From IMG/VR virus record IMGVR_UViG_3300024272_000034: DNA of 64,000 nucleotides, one strand, 5' to 3'. The translations under genes and the position numbers were made by a program. This document shows positions 37,520 through 62,592 of this stretch, piece by piece. Within the stretch, counting starts at the first letter, position 1, and every line of letters starts with the position of its first letter. Under the pieces are notes generated by a model. That model was given only the letters and a program-made list of their open reading frames with translations, ran no database searches and was not told where the DNA came from. The DNA is from a virus.

Positions 37520-38689
37520 ATGGCAGCTGATGATAAAATATTAGCAACGTAGATTAGTACAAATTCTTCTTCCTGGTATCAAAGATTAAGAGCTATTTAG
37601 GCAAATAATAAAACAGGTATAGGCGGGTCTGCTTTATAGCAGACCGCCGACCCTGGTATCACTTCAGGAACGAAGATGACAGCAACACATATTAATAATT
37701 TTATTAATGCTTTAACAGCTTTAAAATCAAATGTATTTTTAGCTTATGCGGATTGGACTAATTATACTCCTTCTACTGTTTCTAGTGGTGGAAAAGCTAA
37801 TGCTTCTACTACATAGACTAAAATTAATAATATGTTAACATCACTAGAAAGTATATGTAGTAATTGTTAGACATATAGTACAAATAGTTATTCTAATACT
37901 TGTTCAAATAATGCTACAACTAGTTATTCAACCTATTCGGAAAGTATTGATAAATATAATTATTCTAATACATGTAAAACTACTTATAATTCCACAGAAT
38001 CTACAAACTCTACTTGGAGTGAAAGCTGTAAAACAACTTCTAATAGTACTAATAGCTATTGTTCTGATGCTAATTGTAGCGCTTATAGCGAGAATGAAAC
38101 TTGTGCAGAATTTTATGTTGGTAATAGCACTTATTCTACAGATAGCACTAGCTCAAATTCTACTTATGGAGTTGGAGATTCTACTTAGGCAACAGATGCT
38201 ACTTCTGTTTGTGCTACTTTATCAACTTATAATGATGAAATATCTTATAGTACAGATTGTAGTGATGGTTGTTGGGATTGTACTTTTCATTCTTATTGTC
38301 CTGCAGCTGAAGTAGCTACTTATAGCGTCGGAGAGTGTTCAACTAATGCTACTAATTCTGAAAATTCAACAGAAGGAGTTTGTAGCACTTGTAGTACTAA
38401 TTCTACTGATTTTTATTGTAATGAAAACTCTTGTACTGAACATACAAATAGAGGTACATATTCAAATCATTCACAATGTAGTACTTGTGGAAAAAACAGT
38501 ACATATAATGATACTTGTCAAACTTGTGAGACTGATTCAACCACATCAAATACAACTTATACTTAGTCAAATTCTACATATACTAACACTAATGATGGTT
38601 ATAGTACATATTCAAAAAAAGCTACATATGGAACATATACTAATACAAGTGGTAATTCAACATATTAGACTTATACGGTAAAAAATTAA
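37520..38689 (+). CDS. Cys/Ser/Thr/Asn/Tyr-rich protein (389 aa, 22 Cys, 9 in-frame TAG); candidate rSAM substrate
   Basis: RBS AAAGGAGGAA upstream. Codon-by-codon translation gives an ordinary ~100-aa N-terminal region, then ~290 aa of low-complexity S/T/N/Y-rich sequence with CxxC and Cx2-6C spacings (SICSNCQTY, SYCSDANCSAY, DCSDGCWDCTFHSYCP, CSTCSTNS, CNENSCTEH, CSTCGKNS, CQTCETDS). It ends at TAA 38687-38689. Confidence 0.6.
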
Positions 38690-38719
38690 TTGAAATGAGA
38701 TAAAGGAGAAAATATTTTA

Positions 38720-40078
38720 ATGTTACAAGATAGAGAAACAATTATTTTATATACTACAGCAGTATGTAATTTAAATTGTACTTATTGTTTTATTGATAAA
38801 AATCCAAGTTTAAAAAAGATAGATCAATGGCTTGATGATAGTTTTTTAAAAACTCCAGATTATTATTTTGAATATGCAAAAAAAGCCGTTTTACAAGAAA
38901 AACTAAAAGAAGTATAGATTTGGGGTGGAGAACCTTTTTTGGGTATGCATAGAGCCTATGCAACAATAGATAAATTTATTAATTATTTTCCAAATTTAAA
39001 AAATTTTATGACTTCTACAAATTTTGTATCTCATTGTTTTTTTGAAGAATTTTATGGACTTCTTGATATTTTTAGAAAGCATCCAAATAGAAATTTTACA
39101 TATAGTTTATAGTTATCATTAGATGGTGTAAAGGAAATAAATGATATTAATAGAGGTAATGGAGTTACTGATCGTTTTATTATTAATTTTGAAAAATTTG
39201 TTAAAGAATTACAAACTTTATTACCAAACAATTTAACATTAAAAATGCATTTAAAGCCCACTATTGATACAAATTCTTTGAAAAAATTATAGACTAAAGA
39301 ACAAGTTTTTGAACAATTTATCTTTTTTGAAAGCTTCAATGAAGTATATTTGAAATATAATAAAAAAAATAATTTACTATTTTCACTTCCAATTCCTAAT
39401 ACAGCTTGCCCATCTCCTCATACTCAAGAAGATGGAATAATGTTTGCAAATTATTGTAAAATAACAAGAGAGCTTGAAAAAGAAAATAAAAATAATAAAA
39501 TTTTTAAATTTTATAATAATATTACAAGCTTTACTCCAAGAAGAAAAATTCAATATGACAAACTTTCATTATCAGGATATTGTCAAGGTCATTGTGGTAA
39601 TGGAAAAAGAGCTATTGGTCTTTTACCTAACAATATGGTTTCTTGTTGTCATAATGGTTTTGTTGATTTGCTAGCTGAATATAAAAAGAATGTATTAACA
39701 AATAGTGAACATATGGATAATGTTACTATTGAAAAAAGTTTATTTAAAAATAAACGTAATACTTTAATTTTCCCTTATGATAGTAAAGAATTTGAAATGT
39801 ATCAAAAACAATTAGAAGTTTTTTATCAAAATGATGATACTGCCAAAATTTCTAATTGTGCTTCTTTAATTAAATTATTGGCTGATTTTGAACAAATTGA
39901 TAAAAAATATCAAGATAAAAAAGAAGCTGTTAAAGGTGCTTATTTTATTTTTAATACTACATCATATTGTGTTAGAGATAATTTAGGTGTGACTGGAAGC
40001 ATCTATATGTATCCTGTTGGTTTAATTAAATTATTGCTAAATGGAGCTAGAGAATATATTGAGGAAGGATGTAATTAA
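38720..40078 (+). CDS. radical SAM enzyme with C-terminal Cys-rich (SPASM/twitch-like) region (452 aa, 3 TAG)
   Basis: CNLNCTYC (CxxxCxxC) near the N-terminus and GGEP in IWGGEPFL. C-terminal cluster CQGHCGNGKRA...SCCHNGF. Track ORFs 38720 and 39350 are in frame across TAG. Confidence 0.7.
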
Positions 40079-41467
40079 ATGGCAAAGTGTTTAAATTTTT
40101 AGGAAGAAAAAGATGTTATTTTATGGTCATTAATTAATGATACATTTGGAAGACTTTTTTCTAAAGAAAAAAAAGAAGATATTGAACATGATATGGGGTT
40201 AGAAATTTATATAACCCCTGAATGTAATTAGAATTGTTCTTATTGTTATTTATGTAAAAATGGTGATGAACTTTATCCTAAAGAATTAAGAAATCCTACA
40301 ATAATTTTAAATAATTTAAAAATTATGTTAGATTATTGTATTGATAATAATTGGAATCCTGGAAGATTTGATTTTTTTTCTGGAGAAATTTGGGATACTG
40401 ATTTAGGTTATAATGTTTTAAGCATTACAGAAGAAGCAATAGAAAGAGGTTTTCACCCTAGACTAATTGTAATTCCATCAAATTTTAGTTTTATTTTAAA
40501 TGAAGAAGCTAAAAATAGAGTTGAAAAATTTATGGAAAAATGTAGACAATTTAATATAAAGCCATGTTGGTCTTGTTCTAATGATGGTTTATTGTTAGAT
40601 TTAGAGACAAGACCATTTAATTCAGATGAATTAAATGCAAAAAAAGATACTGAAGATTATTATAAAAAATTATTTGAATTTTGTAAAAAATGGAATTTAG
40701 GTTTTCATCCAATGGTGGCAGCACACGGAATTGAAAAATGGTCAGAAAATTTTTTATGGTGGATGTCAGAATTAAAGAAATATAAATTTGAAAGAAATTC
40801 TTCAATAATGTTTTTAGAAGTTAGAAACGATGATTGGACAGATGATAAAATTTATCATTATTTAAAATATTTAAATACTAGTATTAATTATTTAAATGAT
40901 GAATGTATTAATTTAAATACATTGTCTTTTGAAGATTATGTTAGAAAAACTAATAAAAATATTAAATACAATTATACACCTGTTATTTTAGAAAAATCAA
41001 GTTTATAGCCTGGATGCACTATTCATAGATCTTTAGTTATTCGTTTAGGTGATTTAGCAATAGTTCCTTGTCATAGAACTTCTTATGAAGAATTTATTAT
41101 AGGACATTTTAAAGTAGAGAATAATAAAATTATAGGAGTTACAGCTAAAAATATTCAAATAATGAATTAGGTATGGCTAAATAATATGAGTGGTAATGCT
41201 AAATGCACTAATTGTCCTTATAGCAATTACTGTATGAAAGGATGTTATGGTTCTTAGTTTGAATCTACTGGAGAATTATTATATCCAATAGAATCAGTAT
41301 GCAATTTATATAAAGCAAGAGCAATATTTATTTTTTATAAATATTTAAAAATGGGTATTTATAGAGAAGATAATCCCGAGGATAAAAAATATTTTGATTT
41401 TATTCAATCAATTAAAGATACGAAGGAGTTTAAAAAATGGTACAAAATTGTTTAGGAATTGATTTAA
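40079..41467 (+). CDS. second radical SAM enzyme with C-terminal Cys cluster (462 aa, 5 TAG)
   Basis: Start overlaps the upstream stop (TAAATG). The rSAM motif is CN(TAG)NCSYC, i.e. CxxxCxxC if TAG is sense. C-terminal CTNCPYSNYCMKGCYGS resembles SPASM. Track ORF 40325..41008 is in frame. Confidence 0.65.
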
Positions 41468-42036
41468 TTAATATTTATGAAAATCTTATCATAAATGGAT
41501 TAAATGTAGAATTAGCAAAAGATATTGAAAAATATTTGATTTATTTTTTAGACAATAACACTAATGAAAATTAGTTATTATTATATAATTTATTAAATAT
41601 TTTAAAACGTCAATAGAATACATCAATTCTTCTAAATTTTTTAATTCAAGAAGTTGAATTAAAGTTATTAAGATTAAGTTTTTCTAATAATGATATAAAA
41701 AATAATAAAGATTGTTATAATATTTCATCTTGTCAAAAAAATGAATCTAAAGAAGAATTAAAGAAAATTTTAAAAGTAACTAATAAAGATTTATTCCCTC
41801 CAAAAGGGACTACAACTCGTATTATTAATAAAAGAAAAGAAGAAAATGAAGAACATGAATATGTTTTAGAGATAGATGATCAAGGTAATGTTTTAGAAAT
41901 TTTAGAACATTATATAACAAAAAATGATGCAGATTCTATTGATATATTAAATGATTCTCCTTTAAGCAAACTTAAAGAAAAATATCTTAAAGAAGATAAA
42001 GAAAATAATTCTTTAACAGAAAATGATTTAGAATAA
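41437..42036 (+). CDS. hypothetical protein (199 aa, 2 TAG) overlapping the rSAM gene end
   Basis: Frame +2 relative to the previous gene. Acidic C-terminal half. Function unknown. Confidence 0.45.
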
Positions 42037-42061
42037 TATTAATAATTTAAATATTTCTAAA

Positions 42062-43138
42062 ATGGGATTAGGAATTATGCGTCATAATTCTAATCAACAA
42101 TATACAAAACAACTAATAGAATATGCTTTAAATAATAAAATTAATTATTTTGAAGCTTGTGATTTCTATTTACAAAACGCTTGTGAAATACGTCTTGGGG
42201 ATGCTTTAAAATAGCATCCTCGGACTTCATATAAATTATGTGATAAACTTCCATTATCTACAATTCCTTATTTTATTCAAAAAAATAAAAATTGGAATTT
42301 AAATGATTATTTTAATAATCAATTAGCAAAATGTAGAACTGATTATTTTGATGTTTATTTGATTTAGGCTTTAGATGAACGTAATTTTAATTACTTGGAA
42401 AAATATCAAATTATTGATTTCTTTTTAAAACAAAAAGAACAAGGAAAAATTAAATTATTGGGTTTTTCTTTTCATGGAAAAGTTGATATTTTAAAAAAAT
42501 TATTAGAAATGAAATGTTGGGATATCGTTTAGTTTCAATTAAATTATTATGATTGGATTTTAGGTGAGGCGAAAGAATTATATTTTTTAACAAAAGAATA
42601 TGATTTACCTATTATTACAATGGGACCAACTAAAGGCGGATTATTAATAAATAATTTACCTAAAAAATCATTAGATAGATTAAAAGAAAACAATATTAAT
42701 CCAGTCTATTTATGTTATTCTTTTTTAGAAACTTTAGACAACGTTAAAATTATTTTATCAGGAGCAGAAACTTATGAAATGATTAAAGATAATTTAAATT
42801 ATTTTGAAAATGAATCTCATAAATTAACTCCAGAAGAGTGGTAGCATATTAAACAAAATATTCAAGATTATCAAGAATAGAGTTTAATTCAATGTACGGG
42901 ATGTCGTTATTGTGTTCAAAGATGTCCTGCTAATTTACCAATAGATAAAATTTTTAAAGAATATAATAATTTTATTCAATCTAAAGATTTATAGTCAAGA
43001 GAATTTTTATATTAGAATATTCATAGTTCTAACTCTACACAGAATTGTAAAAATTGTGGTCAATGTGTAAAAATTTGTCCGCAACATTTAAATATTCCAG
43101 AAATTTTTCATAAACAAATTTTCCCAGTAAGGAGATGA
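42062..43138 (+). CDS. aldo/keto reductase-fold oxidoreductase fused to a 2x[4Fe-4S] ferredoxin domain (358 aa, 7 TAG)
   Basis: N-terminal AKR-like pattern (LGIMR...INYFEACDFY...LGDALK...KLLGFSFHG...ITMGPTKGGLL). C-terminal CTGCRYCVQRCP and CKNCGQCVKICP. Ends at TGA 43136-43138. Confidence 0.65.
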
Positions 43139-43142
43139 AAAA

Positions 43143-43553
43143 ATGGTAGTATCTGAATTAGTAGCTACAATTTTTCAAGTTTGTATAATTCCATTATTGG
43201 GTGTATTAACTACTTTTTTTGTAAAATGGGTTAATTCCAAAAGCGCAGAAATCTCAAATAAAATTGATGATGAAACATTAAATAAATATTTAAATATGCT
43301 TACTGAAACAATTAATACTTGCGTTTTAGCAACCAATTAGACATATGTTGAAAGTTTAAAACAACAAGGAAAGTTTGATGCGGAAGCGCAGAAAGAAGCA
43401 TTTAATTTAACTTGTTCAGCAGTAATGGATATTTTAAGTGAGGACGCAAAAGAATATTTAACTTCTGCTATTGGAGATTTACAAATTTATATTACAAAGA
43501 AAATTGAAGCTGAAGTACATACAAATAAAGTTACACCTTGTGTAAATCAATAA
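43143..43553 (+). CDS. small membrane protein (136 aa, 1 TAG), N-terminal TM helix
   Basis: RBS AAGGAGATGAAAAA upstream. Hydrophobic N-terminus LVATIFQVCIIPLLGVLTTFFV. Last gene before the terminator. Confidence 0.5.
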
Positions 43554-43563
43554 AATAAATATA

Positions 43564-43604
43564 GGGGAACCTTTAGTATAATCTAAAGGTTCCCCTTATT
43601 TTTG
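43564..43604 (+). terminator. rho-independent terminator closing the cassette
   Basis: GGGGAACCTTTAG-TATAAT-CTAAAGGTTCCCC hairpin followed by TTATTTTTG. Confidence 0.75.
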
Positions 43605-43620
43605 TTTATATTAAATTCTA

Positions 43621-44314
43621 TTATAAGTAAGCCAACGTTCACGAATTAAATCATGAGATTTTTTGGGAAAATATAATACTTCATCATTTTCAAAAGTTAA
43701 ATGGTCAGTATCAATAATCTTAATTTCACTTAAATTAATCAATAAACTTGTGCTAAAAATAAAAATTGCGGATGTTGGTTCAATGGAGTTATTGCTTTTT
43801 CAAAAGATGAGCGCAATGACTAACCATCAAACATTGTTCCATTTTTTAAATGATAACATAAACAACGTTTTACAATGTTAATATAATTAACTTGACTTGA
43901 GCGTATTCTTCTTTCACCTTCCGCAGTTTTAATTACCAAACTATCTTCTCTTATCTCTTTTTTAATTATATTAAATAATTCAAACAATTCTTCTTTTTCT
44001 ATTGGTTTTAAAAAATAATGATCTGCATGCACTTTATAAGCAGGATAAGCGAGAGAAGGATCTTCTCCAATAAAAATAAAATAACTATTTGGGTCTATTT
44101 TATCCATGCGATGACTTAACTCATATAGATTTTCTGATGAATCAGTGTCCATAATATAAACATCAAAACTTGCAGGAACAACAAGTAAATCTTCTGATTT
44201 ATCAAAAATTGATACTTTTGCCACAGACTTAGATTCTATTAAATATTCTTGAATCATCTCACGCAATTCATTTAAATATGTTTTGTTGTCATCATAAATA
44301 GCAATAGAGAGCAT
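43621..44314 (-). pseudogene. LytTR-family response regulator (receiver + LytTR DNA-binding domain), interrupted by an apparent -1 frameshift
   Basis: Track ORF 43820..44314 encodes the receiver-like N-terminus and the start of LytTR (VIKTAEGERRIRSSQVNYINIVKRCLCYHLKNGTMFDG). The domain continues through a TAG. It ends in another frame (LINLSEIKIIDTDHLTFENDEVLYFPKKSHDLIRERWLTYNRI, stop at 43621-43623). The shift falls in a T-rich tract (CAATTTTTATTTTTAGC). The cause could be a true frameshift, programmed slippage or a sequencing error. Confidence 0.5.
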
Positions 44315-44501: not shown

Positions 44502-44626
44502 GGATGAAAAATCAGACAAAAAATGTGTGAGTGTTTCTTGTTTAAAAATCTGAAACAATTTTTATATAGTAATGGAAGGGTAAGAGAAAAATAAAAAAAA
44601 TGAATAAATACCTTGGAGGTGAATAT

Positions 44627-45103
44627 ATGAATTATCAATATAATCAGTAGCAGGTGAGTCCACCGCAGAATTAGACGACTCAGCAGTATTCTTACCAACG
44701 ACAAGTTCCTTATACTTCTGGAACTTGGAATGCGAGAGTCAGACCGGTTTCTTCAATTGAAGAAGTAAGAGCATCTTCAATTGATTTTGATGGCTCAATT
44801 TTTTATTTCCCAGATGTTGCTAATAAAAAAATCTATACTAAATTTATTAATTTAGATGGCTCTGTGGCAATTAATGTATATGAGTTAAAAGAAATGCCAA
44901 CAGGTTAGGCAGCAGATTCATCTTACATTACAAGAGAAGAATTTGAAAACGTAATTATGTAGTTAAAAATGATGTATAATAATTCTTCTGCGCCTTCTAC
45001 TCCAATAGAAGAATAGCAATAGGTATAGTAGTAGATGAATAGTAATTAGTTTGCGGCACCACCCGCACAATAGCAACATAATGTTTCGCCATTACAATTT
45101 TAA
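44627..45103 (+). CDS. hypothetical protein (158 aa) with Gln-rich C-terminus encoded by mixed CAA and TAG codons
   Basis: RBS GGAGGTGAA upstream. The C-terminus reads TAG CAA TAG GTA TAG TAG TAG ATG ... GCA CAA TAG CAA, which is QQQVQQQ...AQQQ if TAG=Gln. Ends at TAA 45101-45103. Confidence 0.55.
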
Positions 45104-45116
45104 GGAGGTATGAAGA

Positions 45117-45362
45117 ATGGCACAAGTTGATCCGAGACAATTAATAGCTATGATTAGAAATGGTCAAAATCCTCAACAACTTATGTTAAGTGTTTTAGAG
45201 ACGATGCAAGATACTCCTTTTGGAGCCAATTTATTGAATCTCGCTCGCAATGGTTAGACTGCGGAGATTGAAAAAATTGCTCGGAATATCACATCTCAAA
45301 GAGGTATGGATTATGATAAAGAGTTTAATGCCTTTAAACAATAGTTTTTTGGCTTTAAATAA
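45117..45362 (+). CDS. small hypothetical protein (81 aa, 2 TAG)
   Basis: RBS AAGGAGGTATGAAGA upstream. Ends at TAA 45360-45362. Confidence 0.45.
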
Positions 45363-45399
45363 ATAAAATATTTTTTTTAATTAAAGGAGGGTTTCTTTT

Positions 45400-46194
45400 A
45401 TGTTTAATTCTAATGGTTACAGTTTGGCAGATATCGTTGCCGCAACAGGTGGCGGTAGAGAGAATTGCGGCGGCTTCGGCGGCTGGGGCGGAGATGGATG
45501 GTGGATTATCCTCTTATTCTTGCTCTGGGGTAACAACGGCTGGGGCGGCAATCAAGGTGGACGTGGAACAGTTCGTGAAGAAATTGCTTATGGTTTTGAT
45601 ATGAACGGTTTAGAAAATAGCGTCCGTGGTGTTCAGCAAGGTATTTGTGATGGTTTCTATGCCATGAATACTGGTATGTTAAATGGATTTAGTAACATTC
45701 AAAATACTCTATGTCAAGGTTTCTCTGGTATCAATCAAGGTACAGCTCAGTAGACATTTGATTTATCTACTCAGTTACATGGTATGGCAGCTGATAATGC
45801 GGCTTGTTGCTGCGAAACTCAGCGCGCTATTGAAAGAGGATTTGCTGAAACCAACTATAACATGGCAACTCAAGCTTGCGATACTCGTAGAGCAATTGCT
45901 GATAGCACTCGTGATATTATTGACAGTAATAACGCAGGTGTTCGTTCTATTTTAGATTTCTTAACTCAGGATAAGATTGCTACTCTTACCGCAGAAAATC
46001 AGAGTCTAAAATTCGCAGCTTCTCAGGCAGCTCAGAACGCTTTCATTGCAGCTAATCAGGAAGCTCAAACCGCAGAACTTATTCGCAGACTTGATACCCC
46101 ATGTCCTATTCCCGCTTATGTAGTTCCTAATCCTAATTGTTGCTATCCATCTTATGGATATGGGTATGGCAACACTGGATGCTGCGGTGGTTAA
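45400..46194 (+). CDS. Gly/Trp/Cys-rich protein with one hydrophobic segment (264 aa, 1 TAG)
   Basis: RBS AAAGGAGGG upstream. Track ORFs 45400 and 45784 are in frame across the TAG at 45751. N-terminus GGFGGWGGDGWWIILLFLLWGNNGWGGNQGG. Cys clusters CCCETQ and NPNCCYPSYGYGYGNTGCCGG. Confidence 0.55.
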
Positions 46195-46219
46195 TTAACA
46201 AAGGAGGTAAAAAATCTGT

Positions 46220-46639
46220 ATGGAAATTATTGCTAATGCTTTATAGACAGTTCCAGCAAATCAGACTGTTTATTTCACAGATACCGCCGTATGCGGTGGC
46301 CCATCTATGACTCATAGAGCTGGTAGTGGTTTAATTACTCTTAGAGGAATTACTAATCAATGTAGAGCAAGATTCCGCATCACTTTTGGAGCAAATATTG
46401 CTGTTCCAACAGGAGAAACAGTTGGACCAATTTCATTGGCTATTGCGATAGAGGGTGAACCTCTTCAAGCTACTACAATGATTGAAACACCAGCGGCTGT
46501 TGAAGAGTTCTCAAATGTTTCAAGAACTACCTTTATTGATGTTCCTCGTGGATGTTGTGTAAGTGTAAGTGTAAGAAATGTAAGTGATATTCCAGTAAAT
46601 GTACAAAACGCAAACTTAATTGTTGAACGTGTTGCTTAA
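46220..46639 (+). CDS. BclA C-terminal-domain-like (C1q/TNF-like) protein (139 aa, 1 TAG)
   Basis: RBS AAGGAGGTAAAAAA upstream. The C-terminus ...NVQNANLIVERVA and the internal RFRITFGANI...GPISLAIAIEGEPL pattern resemble the BclA exosporium CTD, which ends ...IIIEKVA. The assignment is by motif recall only. Confidence 0.4.
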
Positions 46640-46657
46640 TGAAAGGAGGTCTTATAA

Positions 46658-47305
46658 ATGGAGAAAAGATTAGAACATATGAAAGAATCTTTAATGGCTT
46701 GCGTTGAAAGTCAATTAACTCATTTAGATACAGTTGATACTAAAGAATTAGGTGAAGCCATTGATATGATTAAAGACCTTGAAGAAGCAATCTATTATTG
46801 TACTATTACAAAAGCAATGAAGGAACAGGATAAAGGAGAAAAAGAATCTCATAAATATTATCCAGTAATGTATAATAGAGATATGGATAGAGATATGGGA
46901 AAAATGTATTATGAAAACCCAAATTATATGGGTGGTAATGATACAAAACGTCAATATTCATCTGGAAATGGAGGAGGCAACTCCTCCTCCATGAGTAATT
47001 CTTCTGGAAGCGGAGGAGGTAATTCATCCTCTGGAAATACTGGTTCAAAACAATATAGTGAAACAGAATATAATTTAATGCGCGACCAGCGTGAAGGACG
47101 TAGTCCTCAGTCGCGCCGCATGTATATGGAATCAAAAGAAATGCATTCAGATAAAGCAACTCAAATGCGTGAATTAGAAACTTATATGCAAGAGTTAACT
47201 CAAGATGTAGTTGAAATGGTTGAAGGTGCAACTGTTGAAGAAAAGCAGTATTTAAGTAAACGAGTAGCAGCTCTTGCAAACAAATTGGCTCAATTAAATG
47301 ATTAA
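46658..47305 (+). CDS. hypothetical protein with Gly/Ser/Asn low-complexity core (215 aa, no TAG)
   Basis: RBS AAAGGAGGTC upstream. A clean ORF. The core repeats NGGGNSSSMSNSSGSGGGNSSSGN. Confidence 0.5.
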   Translation: MEKRLEHMKESLMACVESQLTHLDTVDTKELGEAIDMIKDLEEAIYYCTITKAMKEQDKGEKESHKYYPVMYNRDMDRDMGKMYYENPNYMGGNDTKRQYSSGNGGGNSSSMSNSSGSGGGNSSSGNTGSKQYSETEYNLMRDQREGRSPQSRRMYMESKEMHSDKATQMRELETYMQELTQDVVEMVEGATVEEKQYLSKRVAALANKLAQLND

Positions 47306-47561
47306 CATTAATGGTGAACAATGGAGAGTGTTTTTAACCTCTCCATTTCACCCTGCTTTAAAACGCAGTGATGGTGCTTATACTCTAGGATGCTGTGATG
47401 ATGTAACAAAAACAATTTATATAAGTAATGATGTAAGTGATAAATATTTAAAAAAAGTTTTATGCCACGAACTCACTCACGCCGCAATGTTTAGCTACAA
47501 CGTAGATTTGACTTATGAGCAAGAGGAAGTTCTCGCTGATATTATAGCAACATATGGATAG
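47298..47561 (+). CDS. small HExxH-motif protein, putative minimal zinc metallopeptidase (87 aa)
   Basis: LCHELTHAAMF contains HExxH. Overlaps the previous gene by 8 nt. Confidence 0.4.
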   Translation: MININGEQWRVFLTSPFHPALKRSDGAYTLGCCDDVTKTIYISNDVSDKYLKKVLCHELTHAAMFSYNVDLTYEQEEVLADIIATYG

Positions 47562-47630
47562 GAAATTATTCATATGGCAAATCTTCTCTTTAAGAGGTTA
47601 AAAGATGAAAGAGAAGAAGAAAGAAAAAAT

Positions 47631-47668
47631 GGGAGTATCTAATAATTTAGATACTCCCATTTTTTTTG
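47631..47668. terminator. bidirectional rho-independent terminator between the convergent modules
   Basis: GGGAGTATCT-AATAATTT-AGATACTCCC hairpin with an A run upstream and a T run downstream. Confidence 0.7.
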
Positions 47669-48106
47669 TTATATATTACAATCTCGTACTTCTAACTTCA
47701 TCGCACTTTCATAATAATTTTTAGCTTGACCATTGCCGCCCAAAGAAGTATATAATTTATAAAATTCAGTTAATTGGTCATACTAGTCGGGAGTCATAAA
47801 TCCTTGTCTAATAAATCCTTTGCATAATTGAACTAAACGGAAACGATAAGAAGAAATAATTAAATTCATGTGATTCTTTTCTACTTGACCCACATTATAG
47901 ATATAAGACCTTAATTCTTCAAGCTCCTATTGAATTGGTTCAATTTTACTGTCAATTGTTTCATTCAATTTGTCAGTCTCTTGGTCTGCTAAAAGCTTTT
48001 TATAATTTTTCATTTGACTATGCATATATTTACAAAAAGCTAAAGCACCAGCAGAAATTAAACCAAAAATAATTTCAATGAAATGTTCAGTTAAAAAAGC
48101 TAACAT
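47669..48106 (-). CDS. membrane protein with N-terminal TM helix (145 aa, 2 in-frame TAG)
   Basis: The reverse-strand frame is open through two TAG codons. N-terminal hydrophobic FIEIIFGLISAGALAF. It was missing from the ORF track because TAG splits it. Confidence 0.45.
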
Positions 48107-48172
48107 TATAACAAATCCCCTTTCTTAAAATTTTTTCTCACACTATATCAATTTTAAGTAAGGGGATTTTAT

Positions 48173-48664
48173 TTATTCAGACCAATCAAATGATTTTGCC
48201 TAAGAGTTTAGATACCAGTGACCAATACATATTGCGTCACTTTCATCTTCTGTAGCTTGTTTATTATAAAGCGTTTTTATTAATAACTAAGCTTCTTTTT
48301 TCTACTCTGGACGAGTTCTACTTTTTATACCGATTTTACTTTTCCATACTGTAGCTAATACAGCTTCAACTGGTATATCTAATTCTACAATCAATTCATA
48401 AATAACACCAAATACTTCTGCTAATGTTTTAAAGGTTTGAACATTTCCTGTTACATTAGATTGAAGTTGTATATCTTCCATTATAACTTTATTAATAGAA
48501 TAAGTATCAATTAATTGATGAACATTTTTTCTAATATTAAGCAATCTATCTCCTAAATCGGATTGATTACAAGTAAAATGTCCATAATCAATTAATTGAT
48601 TATCTTCAAATATAGCATATCCAGTTATTTTAGAAGACTAATCTAAAGATAAGATTCTGCTCAT
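48173..48664 (-). CDS. ruvC: RuvC-family Holliday junction resolvase (163 aa, 4 in-frame TAG)
   Basis: N-terminus MSRILSLD(TAG)SSKITGYAIFED matches the RuvC/YqgF catalytic motif. C-terminal DESDAICIGHWY matches the acidic motif. ATGA start/stop overlap with dut. Confidence 0.6.
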
Positions 48665-49356
48665 ACTGATTCAAAAACATCTGCTTTTAATCCAAGAGAA
48701 TTAAAAACATCAAGTAATTTTTCATCAATTTTAATTTCGTTATTTAAATTAATTGATTGTAAAGAAGTAGAACCAAATCCGCCTGTTCGTAAGCCAATAG
48801 CTACATCATCTTCAATGGTATAATAAGGTTTAATAATTCCTTGACCAATAATATCTCCTCGTTTTAATTGAATATCAAATGGAGATAAATTAATTAATTG
48901 AAAGAAAATTTCACCTTCATTATCAGGATTATTATAATAATCAGCGTCAATAATACCAACTCCATTAGCAAGAATAAGCCAATATTTTAAAGGAGTAGAA
49001 GACCGCACGCTTAATTCAAGATAAGTATTTGGAAGTAATTCACATTTCATTCCAGTAGAAACTAAAGAAGGTTTAATTTTTGATGCTTTAGTAACAGCGG
49101 CAACATCTTCAAGAGTATAAGGTTTACTCATCTTTTGCGCAAGCTCATATTCAGCCTTCTTCTTTTCTTCTGAGTCAATTACATTCTAATGTAATTGGAA
49201 TAGTTCATATCTACCAAGCCAATTCAATTCTTCAGAACAAGATGGAATTATAATATCTTCAGCTACAACAAAATCATATCCAGCGCTCTGTTCTGTTTTT
49301 CTAATTGGTAAAGGTAAATCAATATCATTAAATCTACTTACTTTTTCAAATTTCAT
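48661..49356 (-). CDS. dut: dUTPase-family protein (231 aa) with an ~80-aa insert carrying one in-frame TAG
   Basis: Track ORF 48661..49131 carries motifs 2-5 (GIIDADYYNN, RTGGFGST). The same frame continues upstream through one TAG to ATG 49354-49356, adding motif 1 (SAGYDF). Confidence 0.6.
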
Positions 49357-49601
49357 TATTCTACCTCATAATTAATATTAACAAAACTTATCGGGTCTTT
49401 TTCATCATTGAAATGTTTGTTTAAAGTAACTTTATACCAACTATCAATAACTGCACCTTTAGATTTTCTTTCTTTAAATTCACTAGAATATTTTGCTAAT
49501 GAAAATTCAGTAGCATTCTTAGCTTCATCAATAATTTCTTTTACTTCATTTTCATTATCTACTCTATATACTTCAATTGTACTTACAAGATATTTTGACA
49601 T
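49356..49601 (-). CDS. hypothetical protein (81 aa)
   Basis: RBS GAGGT upstream. TAATG overlap with dut. Confidence 0.4.
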   Translation of the reverse strand: MSKYLVSTIEVYRVDNENEVKEIIDEAKNATEFSLAKYSSEFKERKSKGAVIDSWYKVTLNKHFNDEKDPISFVNINYEVE

Positions 49602-49602
49602 T

Positions 49603-49863
49603 TTAATTTACCTCAATATTAATTTTTTTAGTATTATAATTTTTTACATTATACATTTGAATATCTTCAATAAAACCTTCAAGATATCCTTCATTACCAT
49701 ATAGGTGAATATTGTATATATCATATGTATAACAACTACTAACAATTACTTCTGCTAAATTATCAATAGTTGTTGAAGCTATTTCTCGCTTACCATTATC
49801 ATCATAAATAAATATATACTAATCAGTATTAAATAAATTAACTGAACTAACAATATAACTCAT
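49603..49863 (-). CDS. hypothetical protein (86 aa, 1 in-frame TAG)
   Basis: Reverse frame is open from ATG 49861-49863 through one TAG to TAA. Confidence 0.35.
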
Positions 49864-49864
49864 T

Positions 49865-50215
49865 TTATCCTCCATATGAAACCATTAAACCTTCACAATC
49901 AAATAAGCACATACATAAATTTTCATCTTCATTTGTCCGCACCCAAATTTCAATTGTATCAGAAGCTTCCATATAATCAACAGTAATAATCTTACCAATA
50001 TCTAAAGCGCAAGTAAGAACTGCTTTTCCTTTATTTTCAAAATCCGATTCGTTTGCTTTTGGATAGAAAATAGTATAATAAGAAATTTCTTTACATAAAA
50101 GCATTAAATTTGAATAATTTTTCATTTTATCATTAATTAATTCAATATAAGGGTCTATATTATCTGCTATTGGAAGCTATGAAACAATAGATTTATTTAA
50201 ATCATATAGATTCAT
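49865..50215 (-). CDS. hypothetical protein (~116 aa with upstream extension through one TAG; start uncertain, alternative start at 50125)
   Basis: Track ORF 49865..50125. The frame stays open upstream through a TAG to ATG 50213-50215. Confidence 0.35.
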
Positions 50216-50299
50216 AGAAATATTTCCATAATCTTTAGATTCTTTTTTTAAATTACACTTCATTATTTATCTCCTTTTTTATTTTATATAATAATTATA

Positions 50300-50782
50300 T
50301 CATATTTTTTTATTTTTGTCAAGATAAATAATACGTTGATTGCGGCTTCCTCTCATAGGAAGTGTAATGTCTCTTTCAGCTTCAATATAAGGTCCATCAA
50401 TTAAACAAGTAATTAATTCTAAAATTTCTTTTATATTTGGATTATGAGGTAAATCATCGTAAGTATACCCTGTCCATAAATAAATTTCTGTATCTGGTAA
50501 TTTTTCTTTAACAGTTTTTATTACCAATAAAGTCAAAAAAGTATTTTCAGGACATAAAGGTTCTCCACCCAAAATACTTAAAGAACGCTTAATACCATTA
50601 GCTTGAAGAGCTTCAATTATTTCATTAATTACATCAGTAGTAAATTCTAGTCCTCCGTCATAATCCCAAGTTTCGGGATTATGACAGCCAAGACAATGAT
50701 GCGGACATCCTTGAGTATAGAAAGAAACTGATACACCAGTTGCCGCAGAAAAATCATTTTTAATTAAACCTGCATATCGCAT
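50300..50782 (-). CDS. nrdG: anaerobic ribonucleotide reductase activating protein (160 aa)
   Basis: GCPHHCLGCHNPETW (CxxxCxxC radical-SAM cluster) after the GVSVSFYTQ motif. Adjacent to nrdD. No TAG. Confidence 0.75.
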   Translation of the reverse strand: MRYAGLIKNDFSAATGVSVSFYTQGCPHHCLGCHNPETWDYDGGLEFTTDVINEIIEALQANGIKRSLSILGGEPLCPENTFLTLLVIKTVKEKLPDTEIYLWTGYTYDDLPHNPNIKEILELITCLIDGPYIEAERDITLPMRGSRNQRIIYLDKNKKI

Positions 50783-51411
50783 TATTCTTCCTCCTCTAAG
50801 TCTAAATCATGAACATCATCTGGATTAGCTACTTCGTAATAAAATATACATCTACAACTGGGATGATATGGTGGGAGATTAACATCTTCATCTGGCGGAT
50901 ATTCTCCGCCTTCACACATATCACATCCACTTTCAATTACTAATAAAGTAGCATTAATAGGTCTTTTATTTTTCTTTACTGCATTTTCTACATTTTTAGT
51001 TTCTGTATTTAAAATTCTTTCAAATTTATAAACTAAATTATCTCTTATTTCTTTATAAGTTTTTTCTTTTAAAATATCTTGTCTTGTCTCTTCCCAAATT
51101 AAAGACAATCTATCTTGAATTGTTTTTCCATCTTCTTTATAAGTTAAATCAAAGATATTTTTGATATTAAATTCTTCTACTTCTTCATATAATTTTTCTA
51201 TATATTTACTTGTAATAAGATATGTTTCAGTTAATGATTCATAAAATAAATCTTCAATTTTTTTATATGCTTTATCCCAAAGTTTAATATTAAAATTATT
51301 TGAATATTCTCTGACAGCTTTTAAAGATTTATTTATAATTTTTTCAAAATATTTATCTTTAGATTCGTCAATTAAATCTTCTAATTTAAGTATTTCTTTT
51401 CTGATACTCAT
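50782..51411 (-). CDS. hypothetical protein with C-terminal zinc-ribbon-like Cys motif (209 aa)
   Basis: Clean ORF between nrdD and nrdG. The C-terminus has CDMCEGG...HPSCRC. Confidence 0.45.
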   Translation of the reverse strand: MSIRKEILKLEDLIDESKDKYFEKIINKSLKAVREYSNNFNIKLWDKAYKKIEDLFYESLTETYLITSKYIEKLYEEVEEFNIKNIFDLTYKEDGKTIQDRLSLIWEETRQDILKEKTYKEIRDNLVYKFERILNTETKNVENAVKKNKRPINATLLVIESGCDMCEGGEYPPDEDVNLPPYHPSCRCIFYYEVANPDDVHDLDLEEEE

Positions 51412-51416
51412 AACAA

Positions 51417-53708
51417 TTATCCATGTTTAACCCTTCGCTCTACCTCATCTTGTTTACCAAGGTTAAAAGCAGTTTTATAATTACCAGTTAAATAACCAGT
51501 AACTCTACGCAATTGTTGAATTTCTTTACTTCCGCATTCTGGACATTCATCATTAAATTCATCAGTATATCCGCATTTAAGACAAGTATCATTTGGAACA
51601 TTTACTGCGAAATAAGGAATATCTTTATCCATAGCATAATTTACTAAAATTTCTAATGCCTCAAGATTATTTTTAATTCCACTATCCAATTCAACATAAG
51701 TAATACATCCAGCAGAAGAATAACAGGTTAATTGAGATTCAATATCAATTTTTTCAAATGGAGACATCTCTATCCACACAGGTACATGCATAGAATTAGT
51801 AAAGAATTCTTTATCGGAAACATTCTCAATTACACCATATTTATCTTTAAATTTCTTTAAAGCAGTATGACATAGGTTTTCCGCAGGTGAATAATAAACA
51901 CCAAAATTTAATTTATATTCATTTTTAAATTGAGCACAACGAGTTTTAAACAATTCTTCAATTCGTTTTGCTAATTCCATTCCTTCTGGAGTAGTATGAT
52001 TTTTTCCAATAAGAATTTGAAGCGTTTCAGCAAGACCTAATTGTCCAAGAGCAAGGGTACCATGCTTAAGAGCGGAACGTATTCCTTCTTCTGGAATATA
52101 TCCTGCCATAAGTCCATTTTCATACATAAACTTAGCAGAATCAGGAGATTGACTACAAATCCATTCAAATCTTTCAATAAGCATATCTTTAGCATCATAT
52201 ATTGCTTTATCAAGAATTTCCATAAAAATATCTACAAGTTCAGTAGTATATTTATATTTATCTGTAAATTGATTTTCCCACTCTTCTTTTGCTTCCATGG
52301 CTAATGTAGGAAGAATAATTGTTACAGGACAAATATTACCTCTACCATCTTTGAGTTGACCAAAACCATTAATATCCCAACCATTTGCTGTGCGGCATCC
52401 CATCGTTGAGAAATAAGTTCTTGGGTCATTAATATCATATCCAGCATTACCAGACCAATCAACATTTGCGTAATTGGGATATAGTCTTTGAGCGGTTGAT
52501 TTTAAAGCCAATTGGAATAAATCATAATTGGGGTCTCCAGGTTTACGATTTACACCTTTCATACATTGAAAGATTCCACAAGGGAAAATAGATGTTTTAT
52601 GTAAAGCTCCAATACCTTCAATGGATACTTCAAGCAAAGCTTTAGTCACCATTCTACCTTCTGGTAAAGTACAAGTACCATAATTAATAGAAGTAAATGG
52701 CAACTGATTGCCTGAACGAGATTGAAGTGTATTAAGATTATGATACATTCCTTCTACGGCTTGATGTGTTTCTTTTTTTGTTTCAAATAGAGCTGCTTGA
52801 CTTAAATATTTATCAAGATTAACAATATTACTAAAAGTGAAATCTTCATATTTAAGATTAAATTCTTTTAAATATTTTTCTTTATGATTTTCAACCCAAT
52901 TATCTAATTCTTCATTTGGCATATCCAAAAGAGACAGAGCTAAAAATTCGTCAGTATGTTTTACATATTCTAATACATAATGTTTAAAAAATGATTTGCG
53001 TATATAAGGCACCATGGTCCAGTCAATATGTGTCGCAGAAACACCACCAAATTGTTGTAAACTTTGTAATTGGAAAATAACCGCTACAAGCTGAAATGCT
53101 GTATTTACAGAACCTGCGGGACGCACATCTGTTTGTCTGGTATTAAATCCTTTAGCAAGCAAATCATCAAAAGGAATAGATAAGCAATTATGTGAACCAA
53201 CATAATAACTATTTAAGTCATGAATATAAATACGATTATTTAAATGATTTTCTCTTGCTTTTGGTGATACAATAAAATCTAATGCTAATTGTTTCGTGAC
53301 CACATCTCCAGCTTCACCTGTGCGGCCTCCAAAAGATGCTTCATCTACATTAGCATTTTGGTTTTGGATATTTGTAGCATTTAATTTTTCTTTAACTGCG
53401 TCAATAAAATCATTTTCATAATGTCTAGCAACTTCTTTTTTATATCTATAACGAATATATTCTCTTGCTACATCACTGCGTTCAGAACGCATTAAATATT
53501 CTTCAACTTTATCTTGAACTTTTTCAACAGTAAATGGTTTATCTGAATTATGTACAGCATCTTTATAAATAGCTTCCGCTATATCAGCAGCTGTATCTGT
53601 TTCATAAAGTTTTCCATCAACTTCAAGAAAAGCTTTATTTATTGCGGTAATAATTTTACCTTTATTAAAAGGAACAAGTGTTCCATCTCTTTTATAAATT
53701 TGTACCAT
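51417..53708 (-). CDS. nrdD: anaerobic ribonucleoside-triphosphate reductase (763 aa)
   Basis: ATP-cone-like N-terminus. C-terminal zinc ribbon CLKCGYTDEFNDECPECGS. Glycyl-radical motif RRVTGYL. No TAG. Confidence 0.85.
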   Translation of the reverse strand: MVQIYKRDGTLVPFNKGKIITAINKAFLEVDGKLYETDTAADIAEAIYKDAVHNSDKPFTVEKVQDKVEEYLMRSERSDVAREYIRYRYKKEVARHYENDFIDAVKEKLNATNIQNQNANVDEASFGGRTGEAGDVVTKQLALDFIVSPKARENHLNNRIYIHDLNSYYVGSHNCLSIPFDDLLAKGFNTRQTDVRPAGSVNTAFQLVAVIFQLQSLQQFGGVSATHIDWTMVPYIRKSFFKHYVLEYVKHTDEFLALSLLDMPNEELDNWVENHKEKYLKEFNLKYEDFTFSNIVNLDKYLSQAALFETKKETHQAVEGMYHNLNTLQSRSGNQLPFTSINYGTCTLPEGRMVTKALLEVSIEGIGALHKTSIFPCGIFQCMKGVNRKPGDPNYDLFQLALKSTAQRLYPNYANVDWSGNAGYDINDPRTYFSTMGCRTANGWDINGFGQLKDGRGNICPVTIILPTLAMEAKEEWENQFTDKYKYTTELVDIFMEILDKAIYDAKDMLIERFEWICSQSPDSAKFMYENGLMAGYIPEEGIRSALKHGTLALGQLGLAETLQILIGKNHTTPEGMELAKRIEELFKTRCAQFKNEYKLNFGVYYSPAENLCHTALKKFKDKYGVIENVSDKEFFTNSMHVPVWIEMSPFEKIDIESQLTCYSSAGCITYVELDSGIKNNLEALEILVNYAMDKDIPYFAVNVPNDTCLKCGYTDEFNDECPECGSKEIQQLRRVTGYLTGNYKTAFNLGKQDEVERRVKHG

Positions 53709-53778
53709 TAATAAATCCTCCGAAAATATTAATTTGGGGCGACCCTATTATATTTAATAGTTGTTTTTTTATGGTTAA

Positions 53779-54333
53779 TTACTTCTGCCCAATGATGCTT
53801 AAAATTGTCTTTACGTTCTTCATTAAGTCTAATGTATTATCATTTTGTAATTCAATATATTCAAAAGGTAAATCTGAAAAATCTTTTTTATCAGTTCCAT
53901 AACGTCTAACAATTTCATCAACATTTGGTTCATCTTCTCTATTTAATTGTCTTAAAAGTCTTTGTTTATCAGAAGCTTTTATATAAAAAATAGTTACATC
54001 AATTTGAGGGTCTGATAGTAAAAATTCAACACGAGATGGGTCAAATACTCCTATATTTATAACATCTGAACGTAAACATTCATAATCAGTTCCATAAAAC
54101 CAATCATTAAAAGTTGCCATTTCTACTAATTCATTATTAATAGCTTTTTGCGCAAATTGCTCTGGTGTTATAAAATAGTAATTAATACCTTCAATTTCAT
54201 TATCTCTACGAGGACGTGTAGTATAACTAATAATAGAATGAACATCATTAGTATTTTCTAAAATCATTCTTAATAATGTATCTTTACCAGAACCAGATTG
54301 CCCAATTAAAGCAATTATTTTATACTTCTTCAT
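53779..54333 (-). CDS. gmk: guanylate kinase-like nucleoside monophosphate kinase (184 aa)
   Basis: P-loop GQSGSGKDTL and YTTRPRRDNEIEGINYYF (TTRxPRxGExxGxDYxF pattern). Confidence 0.6.
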   Translation of the reverse strand: MKKYKIIALIGQSGSGKDTLLRMILENTNDVHSIISYTTRPRRDNEIEGINYYFITPEQFAQKAINNELVEMATFNDWFYGTDYECLRSDVINIGVFDPSRVEFLLSDPQIDVTIFYIKASDKQRLLRQLNREDEPNVDEIVRRYGTDKKDFSDLPFEYIELQNDNTLDLMKNVKTILSIIGQK

Positions 54334-54559
54334 TTATGTCAATAGCCTCATCTTCATATTCATATTTTAATTGATTAGGTAATTCATTACGATAAAAAGT
54401 ATATTTCCTTTTACAGGTAGGACAAAAATAAACATACTGTTCAGGATAAGTACATAAAACTTTACCAGTACTTTTTATTTCTTCATTACAATCTTCACAA
54501 TAAAAGCTATCTATATAGATAGCTTTTACATATCGTCTTTTAATTTTCATCTTCTTCAA
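54320..54559 (-). CDS. small zinc-ribbon protein (79 aa)
   Basis: CEDCNEE...CPTCKRKY. Overlaps its neighbours. Confidence 0.4.
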   Translation of the reverse strand: MKKMKIKRRYVKAIYIDSFYCEDCNEEIKSTGKVLCTYPEQYVYFCPTCKRKYTFYRNELPNQLKYEYEDEAIDINEEV

Positions 54560-57047: not shown

Positions 57048-58229
57048 CGTTTATTGGACTATATTTTTCATAATGACTTACTAAGAGCATTTTACTTCAG
57101 TCATTACTAGAACATCTTTCAGACGGTGCTTATCTCCGCCTTACATAAATAGTCTCTACACATTTAATCTTATTTTTCTATTTGTTTCCAATAATAGCCT
57201 TTATATAAAGTTCCATTTTTAATCGCTTTATCTAATTGAGTGTGTCCTTTCATTCCTAAGAATTGTAAGACTGCGGTTTTAGCATTAAATATTTGAATTA
57301 AATTGTAATTTTCATCATACATTTCAATTCGTTTTCCATTTAATGCTTGATTACCACTTTTACCATACATACCATTTTTTTCGCCAGCGGTTTTACCTTT
57401 ACTATTTACAGACATTTTCTACTTAGACTCTTCTGTATGTTTTTTACCATACATTCCATTATTAGAACCTTTTGTTTTTTCACTCATTTTTTGTTTAAAC
57501 TCTTCAGTTCTATAAGGAGAGTTGTCTCTTTCAAATTCTGCCCAATAAGATAAAAATGCTTTAGTTTTTTCACTATGGTATTTTCCATACATTCCATTAT
57601 TCTTACCACGATTTACTTCACTTAATTTTCGGCACAAAACTTCTTTTTCTTCTGGTGTATATCCTGCGGTAGTGTTTCCTCCACAACCGCCCTCATGAAT
57701 ATTATAAAACAATGGATTTGATGTGGCATTATATAAGGCAATAAATTGTTTTTCTTTTTCACTATTTTCTAAATCATTTTTAGAAACAAATAAAATGGAC
57801 TTTGTAAAACAGTCTTTTCCATATTTGGCAATTTCTTTTTTCAATTCTTTTCCGCTGCCTAAATATGAATCATCTAATTCTCCATAATGTTTTCCGATAT
57901 ATTTCATACCATTTATATTATTAGTAGTTAAATAAATATAATGTTGTTTCATTTAAACAACCCCCTTTCATATATATTTAACTTTTAGAATTAGACAATG
58001 ACCTGACTTTGTCCAAGATTTTTAGCACGGTATTCCCAATCTAACCTTTTTTAGGTCATAGGGTCTCTTAGTCAGTTGATTCGCATTTATATAACATAAA
58101 TCTTATTTCGCTGATACCGTTAGCCTGCGGTTACTCGTCTCGCCGGTCGGATGACCGGGCCGCCGCAGACACCCATTAAGCAATGGTTAATGTTCTTTTT
58201 TTACAACTGCCCAATATCAATATTAGACT
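57048..58229 (-). mobile_element. group I intron in dnaE carrying a GIY-YIG homing endonuclease gene
   Basis: Exon 1 ends ...NKERAELP at 58230 and exon 2 starts at 57047. Joining them restores the conserved DnaE motif. The intron follows a U and ends in G. Its 5' part (58090-58170) is GC-rich and structured. The read-through tail after exon 1 (SLILILGSCKKRTLTIA) is unconserved. Confidence 0.7.
57170..57952 (-). CDS. GIY-YIG homing endonuclease with four NUMOD3 (NGMYGK) repeats (260 aa) containing one in-frame TAG
   Basis: The N-terminus YIYLTTNNINGMKYIGKH is the GIY-YIG motif. Track ORFs 57419..57952 and 57170..57415 are in one frame separated only by a TAG (TEESK-TAG-KMSVNSKGK). The C-terminus has an HTH-like IKNGTLYKGYYW. 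RBS GGGGG upstream. Confidence 0.7.
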
Positions 58230-59600: not shown

Positions 59601-59662
59601 ATATATTCACTCTCCATTTTTATTTTTTCATATAAATATTATACCATATTTTATATGAAAAA

Positions 59663-59857: not shown

Positions 59858-59860
59858 AGA

Positions 59861-61051: not shown

Positions 61052-61053
61052 TT

Positions 61054-61643: not shown

Positions 61644-61723
61644 AAATATATTTACCCCTCACTTATTATTATTTCTATATATATTATATCATATTTTTTT
61701 ATAAAAATCAAAAAGGGAAGATT

Positions 61724-62554: not shown

Positions 62555-62592
62555 AATTTTTCTCCTAATATTTCTATTAGGTCTATCGTGTT

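Follow-up and report, generated by a model that had tools for sequence, protein, structure and literature searches.

A stand-alone BclA-like jelly-roll protein and a Cys-rich helical protein are encoded by an almost obligate gene pair in the late region of TAG-recoding and other gut phages

The viral DNA analysed here, a window of 64,000 nucleotides (nt) from IMG/VR record IMGVR_UViG_3300024272_000034, carries two neighbouring plus-strand genes that we call gA (45400-46194, 264 amino acids (aa)) and gB (46220-46639, 139 aa). The product of gB is a C1q/TNF-superfamily jelly roll that stands alone and is remotely related to the family of BclA C-terminal domains; that of gA is poor in Lys, rich in Gly, Trp and Cys, mainly helical, and includes one short hydrophobic segment. 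The genes almost always occur side by side, are kept together in thousands of phages, and make up the core of a cassette of five to seven genes in the distal late region of many phages of gut Firmicutes. Our tentative reading, for which we would give somewhat less than even chances, is that both proteins form a two-part complex of stalk and head, that is, an accessory binding structure.

Both genes depend on how TAG is read. Under the standard bacterial code the interval 45400-46639 contains three open reading frames (ORFs) of 117, 136 and 110 aa: the first two share one frame, with a single TAG (45751-45753) between them, and the third starts at 46307 and, if extended upstream through a TAG at 46244-46246, reaches an ATG at 46220. 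Reading through both TAGs yields the full-length gA and gB. The original prediction had described two genes here and mentioned neither in-frame TAG; its gene pair is intact with TAG read as Gln and does not exist under the standard code. In practice this is also a warning, since annotation with the standard code splits both genes into apparent fragments.

The read-through is legitimate because four observations agree. First, when TAG is taken as sense, the ORFs of at least 100 aa in the window add up to 71.3 kb instead of 41.9 kb, and the longest reaches 3310 aa instead of 837 aa. Second, the sequence AGGAGG, read as the ribosome-binding site, stands 9 nt before the start codon of gA (45385-45390, +) and 12 nt before the gB start at 46220 (46202-46207, +), and inspection of the sequence found none before the internal ATGs of the two frames, including that at 46307. 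Third, PHROG profiles span both TAGs: phrog_16490 aligns with aa 14-263 of gA (E 7e-57) and phrog_20016 with aa 2-139 of gB (E 4e-58). Fourth, the residue aligned with TAG is usually Gln. At codon 9 of gB (46244-46246, +), read as Gln, all homologues of exactly 139 aa (113/113) have this residue, and the site aligned to Gln in 53 of 62 related loci. The site of codon 118 in gA (45751-45753, +) is variable, with Q, N, L, G or a gap in relatives and Q in the closest ones, so that this TAG is a sense codon and probably Gln. When the TAG positions of six genes were pooled over the related loci, Gln was the commonest residue (106 cases) and another stop codon was found in 37.

The distribution of TAG along the window follows the two strands. 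Nearly every long ORF on the plus strand between 1 and 47642 contains in-frame TAGs (78 in the 3306-aa ORF at 2841-12761), and the early genes for replication and nucleotide metabolism on the minus strand (48-64 kb; 47669-64000) are almost free of them. The GC content of the window is 28%. ARAGORN found zero tRNA genes within these 64 kb, hence no suppressor tRNA with a CUA anticodon there. A metagenome contig of about 71 kb in ENA (ERZ27248446, k141_2211857) is near-identical to the window, with 99-100% protein identity over nine cassette and flanking genes. The window belongs to a phage of low GC content in whose late genes TAG is read as Gln and, given this read-through, gA and gB are intact late genes. 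The features noted in the original prediction are far beyond chance, each of the two proteins having at least 8,000 database homologues.

The structure of gB was predicted as a monomer, with AlphaFold2 and an alignment of 56 homologues. The model is confident (mean predicted local distance difference test (pLDDT) 89.4, predicted template-modelling score (pTM) 0.81) and all-beta, with about 11 strands arranged as a compact jelly-roll sandwich of about 130-140 residues that superposes on the heads of C1q, TNF and BclA. The closest structures are proteins of the exosporium and of endospore appendages, namely F-BclA, BclA and ExsFA/BxpB; Foldseek puts the matches in the same order and adds BxpB (8d02, template-modelling score (TM) 0.77) and the ExsF/F-Anchor complex 9h3d. 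A fold like that of C1q and of the BclA C-terminal domain had been proposed, correctly, from the letters alone, with a model other than a jelly roll or a lack of BclA or C1q hits named as the contrary outcome, which was not seen. The strings quoted in support of it are also present in the frame: RFRITFGANI (aa 51-60), ISLAIAIEGEPL (aa 71-82) and the terminal NLIVERVA.

By sequence, gB has no match in Pfam even at E <=10 and none in NCBIfam, and a profile search against PDB sequences returned nothing meaningful, with no match to ExsF/BxpB at E <=10. Among 51 diverse members of the family that were scanned, three match the Pfam family BclA_C (PF18573, best E 1.2e-7) and one weakly matches C1q. 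Because some family members match BclA_C, the likeness of gB to BclA probably reflects remote, transitive homology as well as a shared fold. As a candidate Ena subunit (DUF3992), gB was rejected: there was no match to the DUF3992 profile, and its jelly roll is not of the Ena type with a Cys-bearing N-terminal connector.

The family consists of heads without stalks. Searching 1.84 billion representative sequences with the gB profile retrieved 842 clusters (50% identity), and the best-scoring 150 of these all have 83-196 aa, the longer ones resembling fusions with neighbouring genes. Collagen-like GXX arrays, for which the original prediction had proposed to look in orthologues, occur in none of the best 150 of the 842 clusters. 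The exosporium leader has a Pro-rich consensus of the LIGPTLPPIPP type (PMC12357932). Reading the N-terminus of gB, MEIIANALQTVPANQTVYF, revealed neither such a leader nor a signal peptide, and in the model this segment belongs to the folded domain. With no stalk and the head domain only, gB is closer in organisation to the stand-alone adaptor ExsF/BxpB than to BclA.

The best-conserved segments of gB, in representatives 36-63% identical to the window protein, are HREGSG, GNIAVPTGGT, GE, TPAAVE and Cys112-Cys113, together with Cys48. The Cys-Cys pair (aa 112-113; 46553-46558, +) is part of the hairpin that joins the strands at aa 98-109 and 113-120; it is invariant among close relatives and 77-79% conserved across diverse representatives. 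From the order of the jelly-roll strands, we infer that these Cys positions would lie at the base of the domain, near both termini, and the alternation of strands would place GNIAVPTGGT and TPAAVE in distal loops. Few parts of the family are as well conserved as these predicted distal loops, which are not hypervariable, the opposite of a receptor-binding tip that determines host range.

gA is 264 aa long, rich in Gly, Trp and Cys, and has no match in Pfam (none at E <=1), NCBIfam or PDB sequences. Its AlphaFold2 model is of low confidence (pLDDT 54, pTM 0.20), too poor for a fold search; it contains helices at aa 34-43, 68-117 and 122-231 and leaves the Gly-rich N-terminus and the Cys/Pro-rich C-terminus disordered. 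The family has an invariant or near-invariant N-terminal motif, MF..GYSL.DIAA.TG. Equally conserved are Cys83, Cys105, Cys136-138 and Cys160, and a Trp-flanked hydrophobic core. In the window this core is WWIILLFLLW (aa 34-43; 45499-45528, +), flanked by Gly/Trp-rich sequence, conserved in the family and a putative anchor in a membrane or particle. The hydrophobic stretch on which the original prediction based an anchored protein is there; its core is only about 10 residues long, however, with a Kyte-Doolittle maximum of 2.17 over 11 aa and 1.09 over 19 aa, and the case for an anchor is weaker than that prediction made it. The other strings quoted for this frame were found as well, GGFGGWGGDGWW at aa 24-35, CCC at aa 136-138 (45805-45813, +) and NPNCCYPSYGYGYGNTGCCGG at the C-terminus (aa 244-264). 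The CCC motif is invariant, and is shared by homologues from Bacteroides phages, Edwardsiella phages and coliphages.

The C-terminal tail of gA (aa 233-264; 46096-46191, +), TPCPIPAYVVPNPNCCY... CCGG, is rich in Pro and Cys and conserved in the family, in which the pattern PCPxPAYxVPNPNCCY is near-invariant; the conserved residues of the window protein are P234, C235, P236, P238, A239, Y240, P243, N244, P245, N246, C248 and Y249. A simple periodicity test gave no clear heptad signal in helix 122-231. A membrane-anchored coiled coil is plausible for gA. The Lys content is 0.8% in gA and 0% in gB, compared with about 7% in other proteins of the window, and this poverty in Lys spans both families; the GC content is 43% for gA and 38% for gB, against 28% for the window.

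Several candidate identities for gA were considered and dropped. It does not fit a spanin or holin-type lysis protein, for which an N-terminal transmembrane helix, a periplasmic coiled coil and, in Gram-negative hosts, a lipoprotein partner in the outer membrane would be expected: it matches no PHROG lysis family, its hydrophobic core has about 10 aa, the cassette contains no lipoprotein partner, and most carriers are phages assigned to monoderm Clostridia or Bacilli. The segment YSLADIVAATGG resembles the LSxxELxxIxGG leader of double-glycine bacteriocin precursors, but homologues replace the second Gly by S, R, A or other residues, and the cassette is without an ABC transporter. A relation to ExsY/CotY was abandoned in view of the zero Pfam matches for gA at E <=1.

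The two genes travel together. In tblastn searches with the window proteins, gA lies directly upstream of gB in 71 of 79 related loci, a set made up of 3 phage records, 4 metagenome contigs that are nearly identical and 72 loci taken from species-representative genomes; the exceptions are mostly loci that end shortly upstream of gB. The wider block, holin - g44600 - g45117 - gA - gB - g46658 - g47298, is syntenic with the window in about 20 loci. g44600 (44600-45103, +) has a Gln/Pro/Tyr-rich N-terminus followed by a small conserved domain, and contains 11 in-frame TAGs; iterated profile searches detected its family upstream of gA in 63 related loci. g45117 (45117-45362, +) encodes an 81-aa protein and is syntenic in 20 loci. 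Downstream of the pair, g46658 (46658-47305, +) has a low-complexity centre rich in Tyr, Arg, Ser and Gly and is syntenic in 22 loci by tblastn; a family resembling it, seeded from locus L020, was found in 50 loci by an iteration that did not recover the window copy itself. The last gene, g47298 (47298-47642, +), encodes a 114-aa protein resembling HExxH metallopeptidases (phrog_1233, E 8e-18), with weak Pfam matches to DUF6782, Peptidase_M78 and SprT that all fall under the cut-offs.

Iterated profile searches also recovered a further small cassette protein in 19 loci and, in 41 loci, a small papain-looking protein with an invariant Cys-His-Asp pattern that is absent from the window. The latter has 125-130 aa with invariant Asp-Cys, His and Asp (for example in locus L001 at 7068-7445 and in locus L020 at 2242-2631), and is often the first cassette gene in temperate relatives; the window instead has the HExxH protein at the other end. 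Profiles of the papain-like and the Gln/Pro-rich cassette families matched no PDB sequence, and the papain-like members had no Pfam match.

Two bidirectional terminator-like hairpins delimit the cassette. The first (43563-43596, stem of 14 bp) follows the holin gene and ends the long late operon upstream; the second (47622-47667, stem of about 20 bp) lies at the end of the cassette, which there converges with the early genes of the minus strand. With hairpins at both ends, the cassette at 44600-47642 looks like a late transcription unit of its own. In temperate relatives it usually has the integrase on one side and, on the other, the lysis genes or the last large tail gene. Butyrivibrio virus Ceridwen carries the pair (QHJ73768 and QHJ73769), and its host Butyrivibrio fibrisolvens, which does not sporulate, is the sole cultured host of any pair-carrying phage. 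Among the related loci from metagenome-assembled genomes, the prevailing labels are Oscillospiraceae, Acutalibacteraceae, Lachnospiraceae, Ruminococcus, Bacilli and Selenomonadaceae; the labels come from binning, which clearly went wrong in some cases.

The gA family reaches well beyond the pair. Bacteroides phage C3_41T2LP has a full-length member of phrog_16490 with the same CCC motif and the same tail, PAPIPAYCVPNPNCCY. The 180-aa product of a gene next to it was rejected as a diverged gB, because hhalign gave a probability of 0.1% and only an '...ID..CC' hairpin was alike. More distant homologues have a Gly-zipper-like N-terminus and a CCCE motif, to which CAjan and JakobBernoulli add a Pro-rich C-terminus ending in CC; hhalign aligned these gA-like proteins with gA at a probability of 97.6% (E 4e-12). 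Carriers are Edwardsiella phage eiAU (gp08), Seuratvirus and Nonagvirus coliphages (CAjan, with AJT60506, and JenK1), T1-like Hanrivervirus, Yersinia phage PY100 and T5-like Salmonella phages. In eiAU, CAjan, JakobBernoulli and PY100 the gA-like gene heads a four-gene unit whose three partner genes have only matches of unknown function in PHROG and Pfam. This unit usually follows lateral tail-fibre or tail genes; the PY100 copy stands alone between blocks on the opposite strand.

In one coliphage the gA-like gene is interrupted. JakobBernoulli (MZ501079), a viable T1-like coliphage, has a CAA-to-TAA nonsense change at position 6058, and its gA-like gene is annotated as two coding sequences. 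Truncated gA-like copies are found in several other coliphage isolates. The gA-like gene thus seems dispensable for plaque formation, on a single observation that may be a sequencing error. Virion proteomics of carriers was sought in the phage 9g paper, which contains no mass spectrometry.

How might the two proteins work together? We propose that gA would form oligomers that act as a helical stalk, that its hydrophobic segment with flanking Trp would fix this stalk in a membrane or in the particle, and that a putative gB trimer would grip the conserved Pro/Cys-rich tail of gA at its base, where Cys48 and Cys112-Cys113 are predicted to lie. The bond between tail and head could be non-covalent, a disulfide or a metal bridge. 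This coupling is suggested by analogy with the exosporium: there, the stand-alone TNF-like trimer of ExsF holds the Pro-rich N-terminal leader of BclA or of F-Anchor in a cleft at the trimer interface, and CC motifs occur in the protomers of endospore appendages (ENA) and in the N-terminal connector of L-BclA (PMC12357932). The conserved distal loops of gB may then bind a conserved ligand, for example a cell-wall glycan or another phage protein. Because gB is without an export signal and neither gene can be translated in full unless TAG is suppressed, assembly would be cytoplasmic and late in infection, and the complex would become exposed at lysis or on the particle. It would be a dispensable accessory structure, neither the primary receptor-binding protein nor specific to spores; the accessory status is proposed because of the nonsense codon in viable JakobBernoulli and of the truncated copies elsewhere.

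A number of points weigh against such a complex. Contact between gA and gB is argued from adjacency and shared Cys-richness, which are circumstantial. The gA model is poor (pLDDT 54, pTM 0.20), the lack of heptad periodicity in helix 122-231 leaves a coiled-coil stalk unsupported, and a hydrophobic core of this length falls short of a classical transmembrane helix. Moreover, the enterobacterial gA-like genes have no recognisable gB next to them, so gA can work without a gB head. Finally, the trimer of gB and the basal placement of its Cys residues are predicted from topology, and a place for the two proteins in the virion is putative.

Among the alternatives, the one that survives best, although we regard it as rather unlikely, is a role in the membrane of the infected cell rather than in the virion. 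gA would then be a small membrane protein comparable to Cor, Llp or antiholins, acting in superinfection exclusion, in the masking of receptors on debris or in the timing of lysis, and gB would be its cofactor, cytoplasmic or released, or else unrelated. Gene position is consistent with this: the cassette follows the holin gene in the window and the lysis genes in Ceridwen and in Dulem virus 33, and gA-like genes come right after tail-fibre or tail genes in CAjan and in T1-like and T5-like coliphages, a position typical of the genes for the exclusion lipoproteins Cor and Llp. The Trp-flanked hydrophobic segment of gA and the apparent dispensability of its counterpart in a viable coliphage also fit. 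However, a lipobox is absent from both proteins and an export signal from gB, and the hydrophobicity of gA over 19 residues is under the usual transmembrane level. Moreover, the in-frame TAGs make both genes late and suppressor-dependent, and the family is conserved across hosts with very different envelopes, contrary to what would be expected of receptor-specific exclusion.

We consider it unlikely that the pair forms a tail or head fibre, with gB as its receptor-binding head and gA as its shaft, as implied by the fibre tip of the original prediction. Several coliphages do have gA-like genes following those for lateral tail fibres, and annotators of the BASEL collection guessed 'lateral tail fiber chaperone' or 'sugar-binding protein'. 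Against this, gB lacks both a shaft and an attachment domain, and its distal loops rank with the best-conserved segments despite the many host lineages. In the window, the tail genes are separated from the cassette by other genes over about 10 kb, by the holin and by a strong terminator, and the PY100 cassette is not close to tail genes either. The phage also encodes other large candidates for fibres or adhesins, one of 1785 aa and one of 2050 aa with BspA-type leucine-rich repeats, and a viable phage carries a nonsense allele. A fibre tip was not confirmed, and it is weakened by a head that stands alone, by its conserved distal loops, by a separate terminator-bounded unit after the holin and by the other large candidates.

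A link to the spore surface, by which the pair would derive from exosporium proteins and either target the host spore or display spore-like proteins, is very improbable. The best structural matches (F-BclA, BclA, ExsFA/BxpB), the BclA_C matches of some family members and the many presumed hosts among Clostridia speak for it, and a Cys-rich partner recalls ExsY/CotY. Collagen repeats and an exosporium leader are absent, however; gA matches no Pfam family, gB has no sequence match to ExsF, and both are expressed with lytic late genes. The sole cultured host of a pair-carrying phage does not sporulate, some loci come from Selenomonadaceae bins, and gA has homologues in phages whose hosts are Bacteroides, Edwardsiella, E. 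coli, Salmonella and Yersinia, Gram-negative bacteria that form no spores. The suggestion that the genes were borrowed from, or aimed at, spores was thus not supported. That gA and gB are pseudogenes or chance ORFs broken by stops, as the TAG in both frames would suggest under translation table 11, has next to no chance of being right, given in-frame TAGs throughout the late genes, full-length PHROG matches across the stops, thousands of full-length homologues, Gln at the aligned sites and ribosome-binding sites at the upstream starts only.

The surroundings of the cassette contain further genes of note. The holin gene (43143-43553; phrog_13712, E 1e-31) is preceded in the late operon by what looks like a cluster for peptide or protein maturation (37520-43138): a 389-aa protein rich in Cys, Ser, Thr and Asn (37520-38689), a radical-SAM enzyme (38720-40078), then a second protein, marked by a CxxxCxxC motif (40079-41467), and an aldo/keto reductase that has 4Fe-4S domains (42023-43138). 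Between the terminator after the holin and the cassette lies a minus-strand gene (43739-44314) resembling response-regulator receivers (Pfam Response_reg, E 1e-4, below the cut-off; phrog_8810), present only in the closest relatives. The two large proteins encoded at 12873-18230 (1785 aa) and 28086-34238 (2050 aa, with the leucine-rich repeats near its C-terminus) are probable adhesion or fibre proteins. No match to an endolysin was found among the late proteins screened, which were not every ORF; the endolysin may lie outside the window or be too divergent.

Both families are very large (at least 8,000 matches each, and 842 clusters for gB) and the window proteins are covered by no Pfam or NCBIfam model. 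If a stalk-and-head complex is formed, a common block of the dark matter of the gut virome would gain an annotation, and the principle of ExsF-BclA coupling would extend from spores to phages. Cultivable systems exist for testing the pair hypothesis, namely Ceridwen for both genes together and, where only gA is concerned, CAjan, eiAU, PY100 and T1-like coliphages. A more far-reaching idea, to which we assign little probability, is that the cassette builds a new kind of phage appendage or coat in the manner of the exosporium: a helical, Cys-rich protein would assemble by itself and become cross-linked to a stand-alone TNF-like adaptor or head, either on the virion or at the surface of cells undergoing lysis. 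Its gA core would then be shared from phages of Clostridia to T1-, T5- and Seuratvirus-like coliphages, and such a structure would be ancient, widespread, experimentally tractable and overlooked by annotation.

TNF/C1q heads are already known in phages, and automatic annotation has recorded the fold likeness of gut-virome proteins. In the literature on phage BclA/C1q pairs or Cys-rich partners we found no description of the gA-gB pairing or of the cassette; apparently undescribed are the stand-alone, ExsF-like organisation, the near-obligate pairing with a widespread Cys-rich helical protein and the surrounding cassette. The direct relatives of gA and gB in PHROG, phrog_16490 and phrog_20016, are filed under 'unknown function'. 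UniProt entries A0A8S5S925 and A0A8S5SGY1, automatically named 'BclA protein', are predicted structural neighbours of gB, stand-alone and of 130-145 aa, with TM 0.76-0.88.

In its genetic code, the window resembles gut phages that read TAG as Gln (code 15), where in-frame TAGs are likewise concentrated in late genes, early genes are nearly free of them and the aligned residue is Gln; it differs in that a suppressor tRNA was not found in this 64-kb window. Known TNF-like heads of phages (the tail fibres of cyanophages A4 and A-1(L), the tail-needle knob of Sf6, P5 of PRD1 and gp23 of TM4) are fused to a shaft and encoded in the tail module, whereas gB is a separate gene in a separate cassette and has conserved distal loops. 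The C-terminal domain of BclA and F-BclA (PF18573; 1wck, 9h38) caps a long collagen-like glycoprotein with an N-terminal targeting or docking motif, whereas gB is the head only. A close counterpart is ExsF/ExsFA/BxpB, the exosporium adaptor of the Bacillus cereus group (7r1m, 8d02, 9h3d), which like gB is a stand-alone TNF-like domain without a stalk. gB differs from it in being phage-encoded and expressed late in the lytic cycle, with no detectable sequence similarity, and in its partner, which is helical and Cys-rich, whereas that of ExsF is collagen-like.

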